A stretch of DNA of 23,216 bases from Candidatus Margulisiibacteriota bacterium (lineage in GTDB: Bacteria; Margulisbacteria; WOR-1; O2-12-FULL-45-9), in NCBI GenBank assembly GCA_034723395.1, contig JAYEOW010000055.1, positions 1 to 23,216 on the forward strand. Direction: 5' to 3'. A program made the position numbers and the translations under genes. The notes under the pieces are model-generated. The model did no database searches, was not told the origin of the DNA, and worked only from the letters and a program-made list of their open reading frames with translations. Position 1 is the first letter of the stretch. Every line of letters starts with the position of its first letter. This document shows, piece after piece, positions 1-15,248 of this stretch.

Positions 1-40
1 AGGCTTGCAGATGGAAAATTTTTGCGATATCATTCTTCAT
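1..40 (-). CDS. 5' end of a minus-strand ORF (MKNDIAKIFHLQA...), putative transposase
   Basis: AAAGGAG (complement of 49-55) lies 8 nt before ATG (complement of 38-40). 13 open codons run to the window edge. Product inferred only from the IS-like end. Confidence 0.5.
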   Translation of the reverse strand, partial: MKNDIAKIFHLQA

Positions 41-88
41 GTGGTAGGCTCCTTTCTTTTTTGTGTAAGATAAGGAAAACCTACCACA
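40..88. promoter_or_regulatory. Stem-loop covering the SD and start of the minus-strand ORF
   Basis: TGTGGTAGG (40-48) pairs with CCTACCACA (80-88). Inner pairs are TCCTT (50-54)/AAGGA (72-76) and TCTT (55-58)/AAGA (67-70). Confidence 0.65.
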
Positions 89-136
89 CTTTTACTTATT
101 TTTTAGCACACTCTTTGCTATAGAGCCATTTTTTCG

Positions 137-165
137 TTGACAATCCCCTGCCTACAATCTATAAT
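137..165 (+). promoter_or_regulatory. Consensus sigma70 promoter of the flagellar-like operon
   Basis: TTGACA (137-142), 17 nt spacer, TATAAT (160-165). ATG at 175 with no SD. Confidence 0.85.
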
Positions 166-174
166 AAAACTACG

Positions 175-912
175 ATGACCGACCGCATATTGGAGATTGG
201 CAAAGCCGGGCTGGAAAGCGCTGATCAAAAGGTCAGAAAGCTGATGGATAATATGGTCAATTCCGCAGTCCCCGGCTATAAAAAATCAGATGTTTCGGTG
301 CGGGCATTTCCCCTCGAACTCGAAGCCGCTTCCCAGCGTATTTCCGCGATGAAACCCCAGGTCGAAGGATCGTTTCATAGCAATATTCAAGGGGCCCTGA
401 TCAAGACGGGAGGTAAGCTGGACCTTGCTCTGGGGTCGGATGGATACTTTGAGATATCCGGTCCGTGGGGTGATGGGTATACTAGGGACGGGAGATTCCG
501 CTTAGATAAAGATGGCAGGCTGCTTACGGTTGCCGGCAACTATCCGGTGATCGGGAGGCACGGTCCGATAATCGTCACCCCCGGATCAGAGATAGAGTTT
601 ACCGAGACTGGTGAAATCAAGATCGATGAATCTGTTGTAGACCATATCAAAGTGGTAAATCCCGAGAACAGGGATACGCTCGAATCTTTGAACGGGAGTG
701 TTTTTAAAAAGAGCGGCGATTTTACCGTAATGATCGAAGTTGAGAATCCGCGTTTGATCCAGGGCTACATTGAAGCCTCTAATGTGAATATTATCGATTC
801 GATGATGGAGATGATCTATCTGGAAAGAATTTATAATATGAACACTAAAATAATCCAGAGCCGTGACGCGACCTTAGCCCGTTCCATGGAGCTTGGAAGG
901 CCTACCCAATAA
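175..912 (+). CDS. flgF: Flagellar basal-body rod protein, FlgF-like
   Basis: Degenerate N-terminal rod motif (DNMVNSAVPGYKK), TGGKLDLAL, YTRDGRF and C-terminal GYIEASNVN. Directly precedes flgG. Confidence 0.8.
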   Translation: MTDRILEIGKAGLESADQKVRKLMDNMVNSAVPGYKKSDVSVRAFPLELEAASQRISAMKPQVEGSFHSNIQGALIKTGGKLDLALGSDGYFEISGPWGDGYTRDGRFRLDKDGRLLTVAGNYPVIGRHGPIIVTPGSEIEFTETGEIKIDESVVDHIKVVNPENRDTLESLNGSVFKKSGDFTVMIEVENPRLIQGYIEASNVNIIDSMMEMIYLERIYNMNTKIIQSRDATLARSMELGRPTQ

Positions 913-926
913 CAAGGAGGTAACTT

Positions 927-1724
927 ATGTTTCAACCGTTATATGTAGCTGCAACCGGCCTGTCAGCAATGCAGGATGAGATCTTGGGGATTACCGATAA
1001 TTTAGCCAATGCTAAAACGGTCGGTTTTAAGAAGGGGCGGACCGAAATGGAGTCCCTTTTTTATATCGAGAAGAGCTTTAAGGACGTTTTATACGAAGCG
1101 ATGTCGGGGAACGAAACACCGCCGGTAAATGTTGAGTACGGGACCGGGGTCAGGATTGCTTCAACCCCGCGAGATTTTACCCAGGGGAGCATTGAAATAA
1201 CCAATAATCCGCTGGACGTGGCAATTAAAGGAGAGGGATTTTTTGTTTTTAAAATGCCGGATGGGACGAATACCTACGGCCGTGCGGGGAATCTCCATTT
1301 GGATAACGCGGGGAACCTGGTTGATCCCAATGGGCATCTCTTCGATCCCGAGATCGTTATCCCCGAAGGGACCACTTCGATCGTTGTCCAGCAGGATGGG
1401 ACGATCCTGGTGGCGGTCAATAATGAAAATGAATATTCTGAGATCGGGCAGATCAACCTGGCGCGCTTTACTAATCCCGCCGGGTTAAAGAGTTTGGGCC
1501 AGAATCTTTATCAGGCGAGCGATGCTTCGGGAGTGCCCTTCATCGGCATACCGGGAGAAGATGGGTTTGGCAGCATGAATCAATACGCGTTGGAGCAATC
1601 AAACGTGGACGTTATTTCTGAAATGATGCGGATGGTAACGGTGCAGAGAGTTTTTGATACGGTTACTAAGGCGGTTCAGTCGTACGAAGGTATGCTGACC
1701 AGTCTTGAGCGGATGAAACAGTAA
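927..1724 (+). CDS. flgG: Flagellar distal rod protein FlgG
   Basis: NLANAKTVGFKK, GTGVR, TNNPLDVAIKGEGFF, NPAGLKSLGQNLY, LEQSNVD. SD GGAGG upstream. Confidence 0.92.
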   Translation: MFQPLYVAATGLSAMQDEILGITDNLANAKTVGFKKGRTEMESLFYIEKSFKDVLYEAMSGNETPPVNVEYGTGVRIASTPRDFTQGSIEITNNPLDVAIKGEGFFVFKMPDGTNTYGRAGNLHLDNAGNLVDPNGHLFDPEIVIPEGTTSIVVQQDGTILVAVNNENEYSEIGQINLARFTNPAGLKSLGQNLYQASDASGVPFIGIPGEDGFGSMNQYALEQSNVDVISEMMRMVTVQRVFDTVTKAVQSYEGMLTSLERMKQ

Positions 1725-1728
1725 GCTA

Positions 1729-1763
1729 GATATGAGATATGTGAGATGTGATATGAGAAATAT
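1729..1763 (+). repeat. Heptamer tandem array at the flgA start
   Basis: GATATGA GATATGT GAGATGT GATATGA GAAATAT. Confidence 0.75.
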
Positions 1764-2463
1764 TTTATTAATCAGTTTGCTAATTGTGTTTATGACAGCT
1801 TCGTTTGCGCTGGAGAATCCGGAGCGGGAGATGACCGAGGTCATCGAGAATTATGTGCTGGAGAAATATCCGGAATGGATCGGGCTGGAGATAAAAGTAA
1901 ATTATAAATATGCGGACAAGACGTTTAATAAGCTCCGTTCCATGGGAGACAAAGTAACGCTCGAAATTCCGGAGCAATATCAAAACAGCCGTCCGGTAGG
2001 GAATGTGATCTTGCCGGTTGTTGTTAGTTCAAAAGGGTATTCAAAGAAGCTGTTTGTGCGTGCTAAAGTGGAGGTTCTCCATGATGTCGCGGTTGCAAAT
2101 AATTATATTCAACGAGGGAGCGTTATAACTGATGAGGATGTAATGATCGAGCAGCGGGATATTGCTATGGTGCCGCAAAAATTCCATTTTAAGCTGGAGG
2201 ATGTGGTAGGGAAAGAGGCCAAGACCTCGATCCCTGAAAAAAGCACGGTTTACGCATGGATGATAAAAGAGGTGCCGCAGGTCCATCGCGGCGATAAAGT
2301 GATGATCAGCATTGTCGGTACCAACCTGATGGTTAAGAGCGAGGGGACCGCGCTGGAAGACGGCTACATCGGGAAGATATTAAAAGTTAAAAGGAAAAAC
2401 GTTAAGAACCCGTTGGAAGGGATTTTAGTCTCTGCTAATGAAGTCGAGGTGGTGTTAAAATGA
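1732..2463 (+). CDS. flgA: P-ring assembly chaperone FlgA (true start may be 1753)
   Basis: Signal peptide ending ASFA, SAF-like region, C-terminal VHRGDKV...GTALEDGYIGKILKV. Lies between flgG and flgH. Confidence 0.85.
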   Translation: MRYVRCDMRNILLISLLIVFMTASFALENPEREMTEVIENYVLEKYPEWIGLEIKVNYKYADKTFNKLRSMGDKVTLEIPEQYQNSRPVGNVILPVVVSSKGYSKKLFVRAKVEVLHDVAVANNYIQRGSVITDEDVMIEQRDIAMVPQKFHFKLEDVVGKEAKTSIPEKSTVYAWMIKEVPQVHRGDKVMISIVGTNLMVKSEGTALEDGYIGKILKVKRKNVKNPLEGILVSANEVEVVLK

Positions 2464-3095
2464 AAATCCCAAATCCCAAATTCCAAATCCTAACAAGGGA
2501 AAATATTATGTTAATGACTACATTGTTGGGATTTTTGATTTTAACATTTGGATTTTCCGCGCAGGCGGACTCGGTTTGGAATAAAGATAGTGCCTCTCCC
2601 TATAGTACGCAAAAAGCGTATAAAGAAGGGGATATTATCAATATAATTATCCTCGAGAGCAGCACTGCTCAGAATAAAGCCGGCACGAGATCGGATGTCA
2701 AAGATGATCTGGGCGCGAGGTTTACCCATACTATATCGCGTTTAGCTCCGGTGATCGGGACCAACAATTCGGCAACCGGGCAATTTTCGAACAAGTATAG
2801 CGGGTTGGGACAGACTTCGCGCACCAGCAATGTACAGGCGCGGATCGCCGCCTGGGTGACCGATGTTAATCCGAACGGGAATTTGAATATCAAGGGGAGA
2901 CACCGGGTTGAAGTTAATGATGAGATTCAGGACATTATGATTACCGGGATTGTTCGGCCTAAAGATATTAGCGGGGCAAATACGATCTACTCTTATCAGG
3001 TAGCGAATGCGGAACTTTCGATCAAAGGGACCGGGGTAATTGCAGAGACCGAATCTCCCGGCTGGCTGACCCGGATCTTTAACTGGATATTTTAG
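2460..3095 (+). CDS. flgH: Flagellar L-ring protein FlgH, no lipobox Cys
   Basis: KAYKEGDIINIIILE, PNGNLNIKG, ITGIVRPKDISGANTIYSYQVANA, PGWLTRIFNWIF. Confidence 0.92.
   Translation: MKIPNPKFQILTRENIMLMTTLLGFLILTFGFSAQADSVWNKDSASPYSTQKAYKEGDIINIIILESSTAQNKAGTRSDVKDDLGARFTHTISRLAPVIGTNNSATGQFSNKYSGLGQTSRTSNVQARIAAWVTDVNPNGNLNIKGRHRVEVNDEIQDIMITGIVRPKDISGANTIYSYQVANAELSIKGTGVIAETESPGWLTRIFNWIF
2464..2555. repeat. Inverted heptamer arrays inside the flgH signal-peptide coding region
   Basis: Left arm AAATCCC AAATCCC AAATTCC AAATCCT (2464-2491). Right arm GGGATTT TTGATTT TAACATT TGGATTT (2528-2555). Confidence 0.75.
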
Positions 3096-3100
3096 GAGAA

Positions 3101-3212
3101 CAAATGACAAATAACAAGTGGCAAATGACAAATAAATCATTAAATCATAAATCAATTAAAAGATTTGGAATTTGGATTTTATTAGGATTTTGGATTTTGT
3201 CATTTGGGTTTT
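3101..3212. repeat. Inverted heptamer arrays inside the flgI signal-peptide coding region
   Basis: Left arm CAAATGA CAAATAA CAAGTGG CAAATGA CAAATAA (3101-3135). Right arm AGATTTG GAATTTG GATTTTA ... GATTTTG GATTTTG TCATTTG (3161-3206). CAAATGACAAA and TTTGTCATTTG are exact reverse complements. Confidence 0.8.
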
Positions 3213-4255
3213 CCGCGCAAGCGGCATCGCCTGCGGTCAGGATCAAAGATATCGCCAACATCTTAGAGGCGAGAGAAAACCAATTAATGGGTTTTGGCCT
3301 GGTGGTTGGATTGAGGAATACAGGGGACAAGACCCAGACCGGGTTTACCCAGCAGGCCTTAACCAATCTTTTATCGCGGATGGGGATTGTTCCGCAGACG
3401 GTCGATTTCAGGTCTAGAAATGTTGCCGCGGTTATGGTTACGGCTAATCTTCCTGCATTTATAAAACCGGGACAGAAATTGGATGTGACCGTATCTTCAG
3501 TAGGCGACGCTAATTCGCTGCAGGGTGGGACATTATTAATGACCCCGCTCTACGGCGCTGACGATAAGGTTTACGCGGTTGCGCAGGGTAGCCTTTTGGT
3601 CGGGCTGAAATCTTCTACCGCTTCCGTCCCCTATATCCGCCGCAGCCAGACGACAGTTGGCCGGATCCCGGGAGGGGCGCTGGTCGAAAAAGAGGTGCCG
3701 GTCTCGGTCGGGGACAAGGGTTTGATTACCATCGTCCTGGATAATCCGGATTTTACTACGGCCACCAGAGTTGCTGCTTCGATCAGCCGGATCGGATTAG
3801 AGGCAAAGGCGAAAGATGCCGGGACGGTAACTATCCCGGTACTCGGGGATATTATAACTACGGTTTCCAGAATAGAAAAACTCACTGTCGTCCCGGATGT
3901 AGTGGCCAAGATCGTGGTTAATGAACGGACCGGTACTATCGTTATCGGAGAGAGCGTAAAAATTGCTCCTTGCGCCGTTTCTTATTCCGGAATTGACGTT
4001 ACGATCGGGAACGTTTCGCTCTTTACCGAGGGGTCGGGCGGAGAAGCGGCCCAGGATGATTCACGCTATCGGGCGCGTTCGGTCGCGCGGTTAGATGAGG
4101 CCAAGGGCGATCTTAAACTGGTTTCGGGTGGGGCGACATTGTCGGCCTTAGTAAGGGCGCTGAACGCGATCGGGGCATCGCCGAAAGATATGATCGCGAT
4201 ACTGCAGGCGATGAAGAAAGCGGGGGCGATCAAGGCGGAGTTAGAGGTAATATAA
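3104..4255 (+). CDS. flgI: Flagellar P-ring protein FlgI
   Basis: RIKDIA, RENQLMGFGLVVGLRNTGD, RNVAAVMVTA, SLQGGTLLMTPL, VNERTGTIVIG, ILQAMKKAGAIKAELEVI. Confidence 0.96.
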   Translation: MTNNKWQMTNKSLNHKSIKRFGIWILLGFWILSFGFSAQAASPAVRIKDIANILEARENQLMGFGLVVGLRNTGDKTQTGFTQQALTNLLSRMGIVPQTVDFRSRNVAAVMVTANLPAFIKPGQKLDVTVSSVGDANSLQGGTLLMTPLYGADDKVYAVAQGSLLVGLKSSTASVPYIRRSQTTVGRIPGGALVEKEVPVSVGDKGLITIVLDNPDFTTATRVAASISRIGLEAKAKDAGTVTIPVLGDIITTVSRIEKLTVVPDVVAKIVVNERTGTIVIGESVKIAPCAVSYSGIDVTIGNVSLFTEGSGGEAAQDDSRYRARSVARLDEAKGDLKLVSGGATLSALVRALNAIGASPKDMIAILQAMKKAGAIKAELEVI

Positions 4256-14443: not shown

Positions 14444-15159
14444 AACGAAACGACGGCCGGTCGGAAAAGGATATTCGACCGTTAAAGATCAAAAGGAATT
14501 ATCTTAAGTATCCTGAAGGTTCGGTGCTTATCGAGATGGGGAGCACTAAGGTGATTTGCACAGCGTCGGTATCAGAAAATGTCCCTTTCCATAAAAAAGG
14601 GTCGGGCGAAGGCTGGGTAACCGCCGAATACTCGATGCTTCCGCGGGCGACTACGGAACGAAATTCAAGGGAGCGGAATGTGCGCGGCAGGACGCAAGAG
14701 ATCCAGCGATTAATCGGTCGATCGCTCCGTGCGGTGGTAGACCTTGAAAAGCTTGGGGAAAGGACGATCGTGATCGATACCGATGTTATCCAGGCCGATG
14801 GCGGCACCCGGACCGCGGCGATCAACGGAGCGATGGTCGCTTTGAAAGATGCGGTCGCTTTTCTTTTGAAGAATGGGAAGATAAAAAAAGATCCGATCGA
14901 AGCAAACCTGGCGGCGATGAGCGTAGGTATTGTCCAGGGCCAGCCGATGGTCGATCTTGATTACAGCGAAGATTTTATGGCCGAGGTTGATATGAATGTG
15001 GTGATGACCGAAGCGGGAGGATTTGTCGAGGTGCAAGGGACGGCAGAGGGGATCCCTTTTTCAAAGAAGAAACTGGATGAATTATTGGATCTGGCAAAGA
15101 TCGGCATCCAAAAAGTTATCAAAATTCAAGAAGAGGCGCTGGGGAAAAATGCCGAATGA
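14440..15159 (+). CDS. rph: Ribonuclease PH (GTG start)
   Basis: [67 protein letters not shown]. Confidence 0.97.
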
Positions 15160-15248
15160 CGAATTCCTAATGCCGAATTTATGTGTCGCTTCGCGACGTC
15201 ATTATAATAATACATTAGTTCGGCATTCGACATTCGGAATTCGGAATT
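15148..15248. repeat. Inverted heptamer arrays with a central mini-hairpin
   Basis: Left arm AATGCCG AATGACG AATTCCT AATGCCG (15148-15175). GTCGC-TTC-GCGAC (15185-15197). Right arm CGGCATT CGACATT CGGAATT CGGAATT (15221-15248). Confidence 0.85.

Follow-up and report, generated by a model that had tools for sequence, protein, structure and literature searches.

The window analysed here, 23,216 nt of contig JAYEOW010000055.1 from Candidatus Margulisiibacteriota bacterium (assembly GCA_034723395.1; genome of 1.68 Mb, 45% G+C, 97% complete), contains a run of flagellar genes comprising flgF/G, flgA (1732-2463), flgH (2460-3095), flgI (3104-4255) and further flagellar genes. The subject of this study was the 5' ends of flgH and flgI, where the predicted signal peptides of the L-ring and P-ring proteins coincide with inverted arrays of 7-nt repeats (Table 1). 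In what follows G000 is the source genome, C-numbers are its contigs, other G-numbers are related genomes and L-numbers are loci.

The first-pass annotation had described a match of 36/42 nt between 2526-2567 and 3182-3223, translated as LGFLILTFGFSAQA in FlgH and LGFWILSFGFSAQA in FlgI. A recount gave the same figure and the same peptides; the n-region peptides KIPNPKFQ (FlgH) and TNNKWQMTNK (FlgI) had also been read correctly, and the mature proteins are unrelated, as had been stated, since they belong to the separate families PF02107 and PF02119, whose Pfam matches start at residues 34 and 46. Without gaps, the match can be lengthened to 51 nt (2523-2573 versus 3179-3229), of which 42/51 are identical (82%). 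With up to 3 mismatches allowed, the 21-mer TTTGGATTTTCCGCGCAGGCG was found at only two sites in the window, in flgH and flgI, with 0 matches in 100 shuffles, and the same two sites were the only ones across the 1.68-Mb genome. Identity between the complete leaders is confined to their last 45 nt (38/45), that is, to the GGATTTT-type right arm and a 12-nt tail (11/12). Tandem Repeats Finder (TRF) reported period-7 arrays in both leaders: besides AAATCCC x3.9 in flgH (2464-2490), these were ACAAATG x4.9 (3100-3133), ATAAATC (3132-3154) and TTTGGAT x5.6 (3164-3199) in flgI. Left and right arms are 71-88% complementary, the right arm of flgH being complementary to the left arm of the same gene and to the AUG region. 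The left arms of the two leaders belong to different subfamilies, and a perfect AAATGAC array would contain an in-frame TGA at a position that in flgI is occupied by TGG.

Translated in frame, both leaders have the layout of a signal peptide. The n-region charges are K2, K7 and R13 in FlgH and K5, K11, K16, K19 and R20 in FlgI; they are followed by uncharged hydrophobic h-regions (LMTTLLGFLILTFGF and FGIWILLGFWILSFGF, respectively), and both leaders passed an in-house signal-peptide rule. The putative cleavage sites are AQA↓DSVWN (FlgH) and AQA↓ASPAVRIKDI (FlgI), and 19 relatives have mature starts that align with these. Both leaders are therefore predicted to be Sec-type (signal peptidase I) signal peptides that would direct export and be cleaved. 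FlgH here (2556-2580 in the window) and in all 18 relatives carries an AxA↓D(S/A/T) site with no lipobox cysteine and thus appears to be a non-lipoprotein L-ring protein; the enterobacterial FlgH is a lipoprotein.

Table 1. Coordinates of the leader elements, junctions and related arrays in the window (SD, Shine-Dalgarno sequence).
Feature	Position	Strand	Basis or remark
AGATATG heptamer array, flgG-flgA junction	1728..1758	+	TRF; covers first in-frame flgA ATG (1732)
flgA end/flgH start junction	2446..2463	+	SD GAGGTGG 2446-2452; ATG 2460-2462 overlaps flgA stop TGA 2461-2463 (ATGA)
flgH leader, 36 aa, MKIPNPKFQILTRENIMLMTTLLGFLILTFGFSAQA	2460..2567	+	predicted signal peptidase I site AQA↓DS
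flgH left arm, AAATCCC x3.9	2464..2490	+	TRF; would read as polar n-region KIPNPKFQI
flgH right arm, GGGATTT/GGATTTT-type units	2523..2555	+	reads as h-region LLGFLILTFGF
flgH c-region tail TCCGCGCAGGCG (SAQA)	2556..2567	+	11/12 common with flgI, nowhere else in the genome
Mature FlgH (L-ring protein) and stop	2568..3095	+	Pfam PF02107, E=3.7e-45
flgH/flgI junction	3094..3106	+	SD AGGAG 3094-3098 overlaps flgH stop TAG 3093-3095; flgI ATG 3104-3106
flgI leader, 40 aa, MTNNKWQMTNKSLNHKSIKRFGIWILLGFWILSFGFSAQA	3104..3223	+	predicted site AQA↓AS
flgI left arm	3100..3154	+	AAATGAC-type units 3100-3133, then ATAAATC units 3132-3154; would read as n-region
flgI right arm, GGAATTT/GGATTTT/GTCATTT units	3163..3211	+	reads as h-region FGIWILLGFWILSFGF
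flgI c-region tail TCCGCGCAAGCG (SAQA)	3212..3223	+	private match with flgH
Mature FlgI (P-ring protein) and stop	3224..4255	+	Pfam PF02119, E=1.6e-111
Intergenic palindrome, untranslated copy of the same inverted architecture	15149..15248	+	sequence, TRF

The arrays of flgH and flgI begin at or right after conserved SD-ATG starts. The flgH start stands in the context GA(A/G)GTnGAGGT...ATG, present in 18/18 relatives with a recovered flgH 5' end, and the array begins 4 nt past its ATG; the flgI ATG lies behind a conserved TAGGAG, and TAGGAG-type contexts recur in the relatives. The right arms must be translated, because no other hydrophobic segment precedes the mature N-termini, which are conserved as DSVWN and (A/V/E)SPAVRIKDI. 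The conserved starts suggest that the left arms are translated as well.

Copies of both leaders were found elsewhere in the source genome. Nucleotides 1-108 (of 120) of the flgI leader are identical at 95/108 positions (88%; blastn E=1e-32) to the leader of a gene at C4:88337(-), which encodes an unrelated 434-aa protein without a Pfam match; both copies have TGG in place of the in-frame TGA. Nucleotides 4-96 of the flgH leader match the leaders of C40_48901 (73/90) and C43_23083 (70/89), about 80% in each case. The flgI leader thus looks chimeric, with a C4-like front, a flgH-like back and a junction inside the shared GGATTTT array. The repeat does not include the SAQA tail, whose peptide is identical in both leaders; as the sole part private to flgH and flgI, this tail looks like the product of a short local recombination event. 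Consequently, the earlier idea of one repeat element shared by the two leaders needs amendment: both are repeat copies, as had been proposed, but their left arms come from different subfamilies and the tail lies outside the repeat. The inverted architecture also occurs in untranslated form, on contig C15 and in the window at 15149-15248. In the latter copy an AATGCCG/AATGACG arm overlaps the end of the upstream gene and is followed by a central GC hairpin (GTGTCGC..GCGACG), a TTCGGCA/TTCGGAA arm and then an SD sequence and ATG (15264).

For the genome-wide counts genes were called with a crude in-house caller; the picking of starts by SD sequence was noisy, and starts of the longest open reading frames (ORFs) were used for the statistics. 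Signal-peptide-like (SP-like) leaders were called by in-house rules in a loose and a stricter version. A strict regular expression for at least 3 GGATTTT units returned 3 arrays only and was replaced by TRF and lag statistics. TRF gave 167 rows of period 7 (dozens of units) versus 63 of period 6 and 81 of period 8, and the runs at lags 6, 7 and 8 numbered 39, 91 and 23, respectively. Among the 91 lag-7 runs, 24 (26%) were intergenic, a 3-fold enrichment over the 8.2% of bases in this class, and 22 (24%) fell in the first 120 nt of ORFs, against 10.7%; by the crude gene calls the remainder lay in ORF interiors (43/91) or in the last 120 nt (2/91). Under the stricter rule, period-7 arrays were present in 15/280 SP-like leaders versus 8/1244 other starts (Fisher p=7.8e-7), flgA, flgH and flgI all being among the 15. 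The bias toward SP-like leaders was absent for periods 5, 6, 8, 9 and 10. Under the looser rule, with the array anywhere in the first 180 nt, the counts were 18/415 SP-like genes versus 11/1109 others (p=7.6e-5). All-vs-all blastn yielded 81 pairs between gene 5' ends versus 19 between interior segments, and the largest 5'-end cluster comprised 19 genes, 16 of them SP-like, with flgH and flgI included.

FlgA, FlgH and FlgI each matched their own Pfam family. When 16 other array-bearing genes of the source genome were scanned, 12 had a Pfam match and 4 had none; ten of the 12 matches were to envelope or membrane families (SLH x3, LolA_like, SBP_bac_5, PD40, LptD_N, Poly_export, UPF0164, YibE_F) and the other two to TPR and DJ-1/PfpI. 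T-rich arrays in the first 180 nt fell within SP-like N-termini in 7/7 cases (from 29 array genes; judged from translations). A-rich arrays also extend cytoplasmic-looking proteins, as at C19:41510(-), C11:17325(-) and C4:89952(-), where they give polar N-terminal extensions on RecA-like, ScpA-like and PurH-like proteins, whose identities were judged from N-terminal translations only. An AACTAAC array lies inside a valS-like ORF, which would encode an essential enzyme (ORF 16..1224; array at L131:672-703, contig C19), and reads as LTNNLQLTTNNL.

Two further 5' elements came to light. A GC-rich repeat precedes the h-regions of leaders at C11:4579(+), C1:16326(-), C36:5794(+), C45:20599(-) and C7:84708(+), and also that of the L009 flgI leader; its longest-ORF reading is ...PSPxHSLTNGFSSTPSPxGRGT...WVRV. 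As a GTG start is possible just before the h-region, this repeat may precede the real start and form a hairpin that is not translated. The other common element, ...SPSEMERG... (a CCCCTCTCCATC / GATGGAGAGGGG-type hairpin), was found at C35:30332(+), C48:6745(+), C7:52373(+) and C8:3339(-). Immediately downstream of it are leaders of GGATTTT type, among them MRIGFWILILVISLTGC, which looks like that of a lipoprotein.

FlgI was found in 29/31 related genomes, the source genome included, and leaders were compared at the loci of 19 relatives, which are not independent samples. These relatives keep the mature N-termini, DSVWN in FlgH and SPAVRIKDI in FlgI; their leaders are unrelated to those of the source genome and to each other, and some consist of other heptamers. 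The relatives' leaders are mostly short, with a median of 25 aa for flgH (leader plus 2 residues) versus 38 in the source genome. Lag-7 arrays (at least 15/21) were present in 18/55 flgA, flgH and flgI leaders, from 11/20 genomes, versus 2/55 at lags 6 and 8; other units included ACAAGAT/ATCTTGT (L006 flgH), AAATGTC/TTTGTCA (L014 flgH) and AACTTCA (L016 flgA). The only flgH leader of GGATTTT type among the relatives is that of G013, from another genus, and it scores 76 against the flgI leader of the source genome. Exact GGATTTTGGATTTT was detected in 13/31 genomes, with most matches in the two genomes that have a flgH leader of this type, G013 (23 matches) and G000 (9); the reversed control pattern gave 2 matches in total. 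The C4 gene, compared with its orthologues from 13 relatives, displayed the same turnover of leaders, lag-7 arrays being found in 5/14 leaders when that of the source genome is counted.

Within-genome comparison of the flgH and flgI leaders gave a score of 55 for the source genome and 33 for the next best (mean 15.9, standard deviation 5.6, 19 comparable genomes). The likeness of the two leaders is therefore peculiar to this genome and not a conserved functional feature. At L016 (G019) the flgH and flgI leaders both contain AVSCLLLIVS, with 21/30 nt identical and many synonymous differences, a second, older-looking leader segment common to FlgH and FlgI.

Replacement of leaders was also observed between strains. 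Contigs from another study (runs X2 and X4) were 85-90% identical to the window in gene bodies, and exactly at the leaders 68 other nt replaced 2452-2570 and 63 other nt replaced 3099-3220. In one X2 contig position 3094 was joined to 3182 via 32 other nt, so that the right arm alone was kept; the front of the resulting short leader resembles the TTLLGF segment of flgH. An assembly artefact as the origin of the repeat leaders was rejected, since run X1, which may be the source sample, has an independent assembly that covers 2300-3400 with 0 differences, and a contig from another study has the flgI right arm in place.

The arms could also fold in the mRNA, and the first-pass annotation had suggested that they tune translation. 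Long, imperfect hairpins that pair the SD sequence and AUG with the right arm were predicted for both genes. The flgH stem (2451-2472/2526-2548) had a minimum free energy of -36.6 kcal/mol (z -2.44; 4/200 shuffles as good) and the flgI stem (3095-3111/3196-3214) one of -29.1 kcal/mol (z -2.36; 5/200 shuffles as good). With 15 nt of upstream context the z value for flgH was only -1.36. Two-armed leaders in relatives (L006 flgH, L014 flgH, L014 flgI, L016 flgA) are predicted to fold strongly, with z of -3.5 to -4.7. Across the 55 flgA, flgH and flgI leaders the array-bearing ones were not significantly more folded than the rest (mean z -1.22 versus -0.42, Mann-Whitney p=0.12). A regulatory role of the fold is thus only weakly supported, the hairpins being predicted at z of about -2.4.

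The proposal that an inverted heptamer-array element had been domesticated as, or had invaded, Sec signal peptides was supported, and the refutation tests named with it, concerning genome-wide association, the true starts and the orthologous leaders, were run and none refuted it. We consider it probable that the flgH and flgI leaders are copies of a dispersed palindromic heptamer-array family that replaced the ancestral leaders, with a short recombination between flgH and flgI in addition. The family would be built of 7-nt units, AAATCC(C) and AAATGAC types in the 5' arm and their complements GGATTTT and GTCATTT in the 3' arm, and each copy would be flanked by the conserved SD-ATG on one side and the signal-peptidase site on the other. 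In-frame translation of the A/C-rich arm would supply a Lys/Asn/Pro/Gln-rich n-region and that of the T/G-rich arm a Gly-Phe-Trp-Ile-Leu h-region; as the palindrome runs from A/C to T/G, either orientation gives a polar and then a hydrophobic segment. Such copies would have replaced short ancestral leaders. The change would be tolerated, as all that a Sec signal peptide requires is charge, hydrophobicity and a small-x-small site. The flgI chimera and the private SAQA tail would then follow from recombination or gene conversion by way of the shared GGATTTT array. Selection would act as a filter, T-rich arms surviving only on exported proteins and stops being removed from A-rich arms.

Several observations weigh against this explanation. 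Strong periodicity is present in only about 5% of SP-like leaders, and the association could be circular in part, as any ORF start with a T-rich array will look hydrophobic. In flgA the real start may be downstream of the array, at a second in-frame ATG (1753) from which an ordinary leader of 19 aa (MRNILLISLLIVFMTASFA) would be read, and as no SD sequence precedes 1732, translation of the AGATATG array is uncertain. In flgH, translation may instead begin at one of two further in-frame ATGs, 2508 and 2514, preceded by a weak AAGGGA motif; the leader would then be shorter and would lack the left arm. The private 12-nt tail may reflect chance together with a family preference for S-A-x-A. No target-site duplication was evident at the borders of the flgI and C4 copies, located at the ATG and at the end of the array. 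No active transposase was found either, the sole Y1_Tnp (PF01797) match being a 79-aa fragment, with other transposase families not searched. This match (C19:37834-38058(-), L131:1498-1737) covers profile positions 5-78 of 121 and looks truncated.

The likeness of the two leaders might instead have arisen purely locally, by duplication or gene conversion between the neighbouring genes without any repeat element. The tail TCCGCGCA(G/A)GCG, common to flgH and flgI and found nowhere else in the genome, and a within-genome leader score by far the highest among those compared (55 versus 33) are what such an event would leave. Yet better full-length matches exist elsewhere (flgI with C4, 95/108; flgH with C40, 73/90, and with C43, 70/89), the part common to flgH and flgI is mostly the GGATTTT array present at many other loci, and the flgH leader of G013 matches the flgI leader even better, with its score of 76. 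Local conversion is thus part of the story and not all of it, and as the complete account we regard it as unlikely. It also seems improbable that the mRNA hairpin is what was selected, with flgH and flgI translated only when ribosomes arrive from the upstream gene and the coding of the leader a by-product. The gene arrangement fits this idea, with flgA and flgH sharing ATGA and the flgI SD sequence overlapping the stop of flgH, and so do the stems predicted over SD and AUG of both genes and the strong folds of two-armed leaders in relatives. However, most orthologues lack such a hairpin, array leaders are not significantly better folded, the flgH fold weakens with upstream context, single-arm arrays (L020 flgH) do not fold, and the right arm, the sole hydrophobic segment before the mature protein, is translated in any case.

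Two more alternatives were given very little credence. A phase-variation switch, in which slippage by 7 nt shifts the frame and turns the ring genes on or off in the manner of the CTCTT repeats of Neisseria opa, agrees with a unit that is not a multiple of three and with arrays in the leader-coding region, as described for opa (PMC3745409). The arrays here are imperfect, with at most 2 identical adjacent units in flgH and flgI and TRF match levels of 71-90%, and slippage rates should therefore be low; the near-identical contig of run X1, possibly the source, had no length change, although assembled contigs hide rare variants. Such a switch is very improbable. Convergence at the peptide level, that is, selection by a dedicated factor for a lineage leader motif ...GFxILxFGF-S/N-x-A-x-A that made the DNA alike, would explain why at least 10 leaders of the source genome end in FGF(S/N/P/T)xAxA-like c-regions with different codons. 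It would leave unexplained that the identity includes synonymous positions and that the period is 7 nt rather than 3; these units are also present in untranslated DNA and on both strands, and relatives have the same proteins with unrelated leaders. We hardly credit it as the source of the likeness.

Heptanucleotide repeats of the STRR (short tandemly repeated repetitive) type are described as intergenic sequences of heterocystous cyanobacteria, and the cyanobacteria are the sister phylum of the source organism. Like STRRs, the arrays described here consist of tandem 7-nt units of many families, form many short dispersed arrays and are enriched between genes; unlike them, they occur as inverted pairs behind start codons, where they would be read as n- and h-regions. 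A literature search, with subscription journals outside its coverage, returned no paper on heptamer arrays encoding signal peptides, STRRs included. According to PMC4679880, TAACTGA direct repeats of marine Beggiatoaceae, some Cyanobacteria and Bacteroidetes lie mostly a few nt from start codons, have a patchy, strain-specific distribution and have no known mobilising mechanism; placed upstream of starts, they carry stops in all frames in forward orientation, and a regulatory role in the 5' untranslated region was proposed (PMC4679880). The heptamers studied here are likewise near start codons and patchily distributed, whereas TAACTGA lies upstream of starts, and the term "signal peptide" is absent from that paper.

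Rickettsia palindromic elements (RPEs) and other MITEs (miniature transposable elements with inverted repeats) that make in-frame fusions are palindromes of about 100-150 bp that are copied in frame into unrelated genes and translated; according to PMC10969869, metabolic genes are where RPEs are inserted, and the conserved peptide encoded by RPEs has no known role. The leaders resemble RPEs and MITEs in their inverted-repeat arms and in having several similar copies at unrelated loci; they differ from RPEs in being made of heptamer arrays, in lying at the extreme 5' end and in supplying a predicted signal-peptide module, and the RPE review makes no mention of signal peptides or signal sequences. 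The opa genes (PMC3745409) have CTCTT pentamers in the leader-peptide coding sequence, perfect units that act as a frameshift on/off switch. As in opa, the leader contains, and would be partly encoded by, a repeat whose unit length cannot be divided by 3. Unlike opa, the arrays are imperfect, form inverted pairs and were replaced between lineages rather than switched by unit number.

Signal peptides are usually viewed as drifting by point mutation under loose constraints. In this organism whole leaders were replaced by repeat DNA; near-identical cassettes stand on unrelated proteins, and one chimeric leader seems to have arisen by a crossover in a shared array. Array copying explains the DNA-level likeness among leaders in such genomes, and the finding carries a warning for annotation, as long polar N-terminal extensions in metagenome-assembled genomes of this kind can be real. 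A wider and more tentative possibility, to which we would not give even odds, is that throughout the lineage the arrays generate and shuffle secretion signals as portable, orientation-independent signal-peptide cassettes, which would pass between unrelated genes by recombination through the arrays they have in common, with an mRNA hairpin coupling translation of the recipient gene to the gene upstream. Arrays would then repeatedly overwrite leaders, and a T-rich arm could give proteins a new cellular address. The unexplained STRR-type heptamer repeats gain a testable phenotype, and, if export is confirmed, the leaders of flgH and flgI would exemplify a simple natural route from non-coding repeat DNA to a functional targeting sequence.

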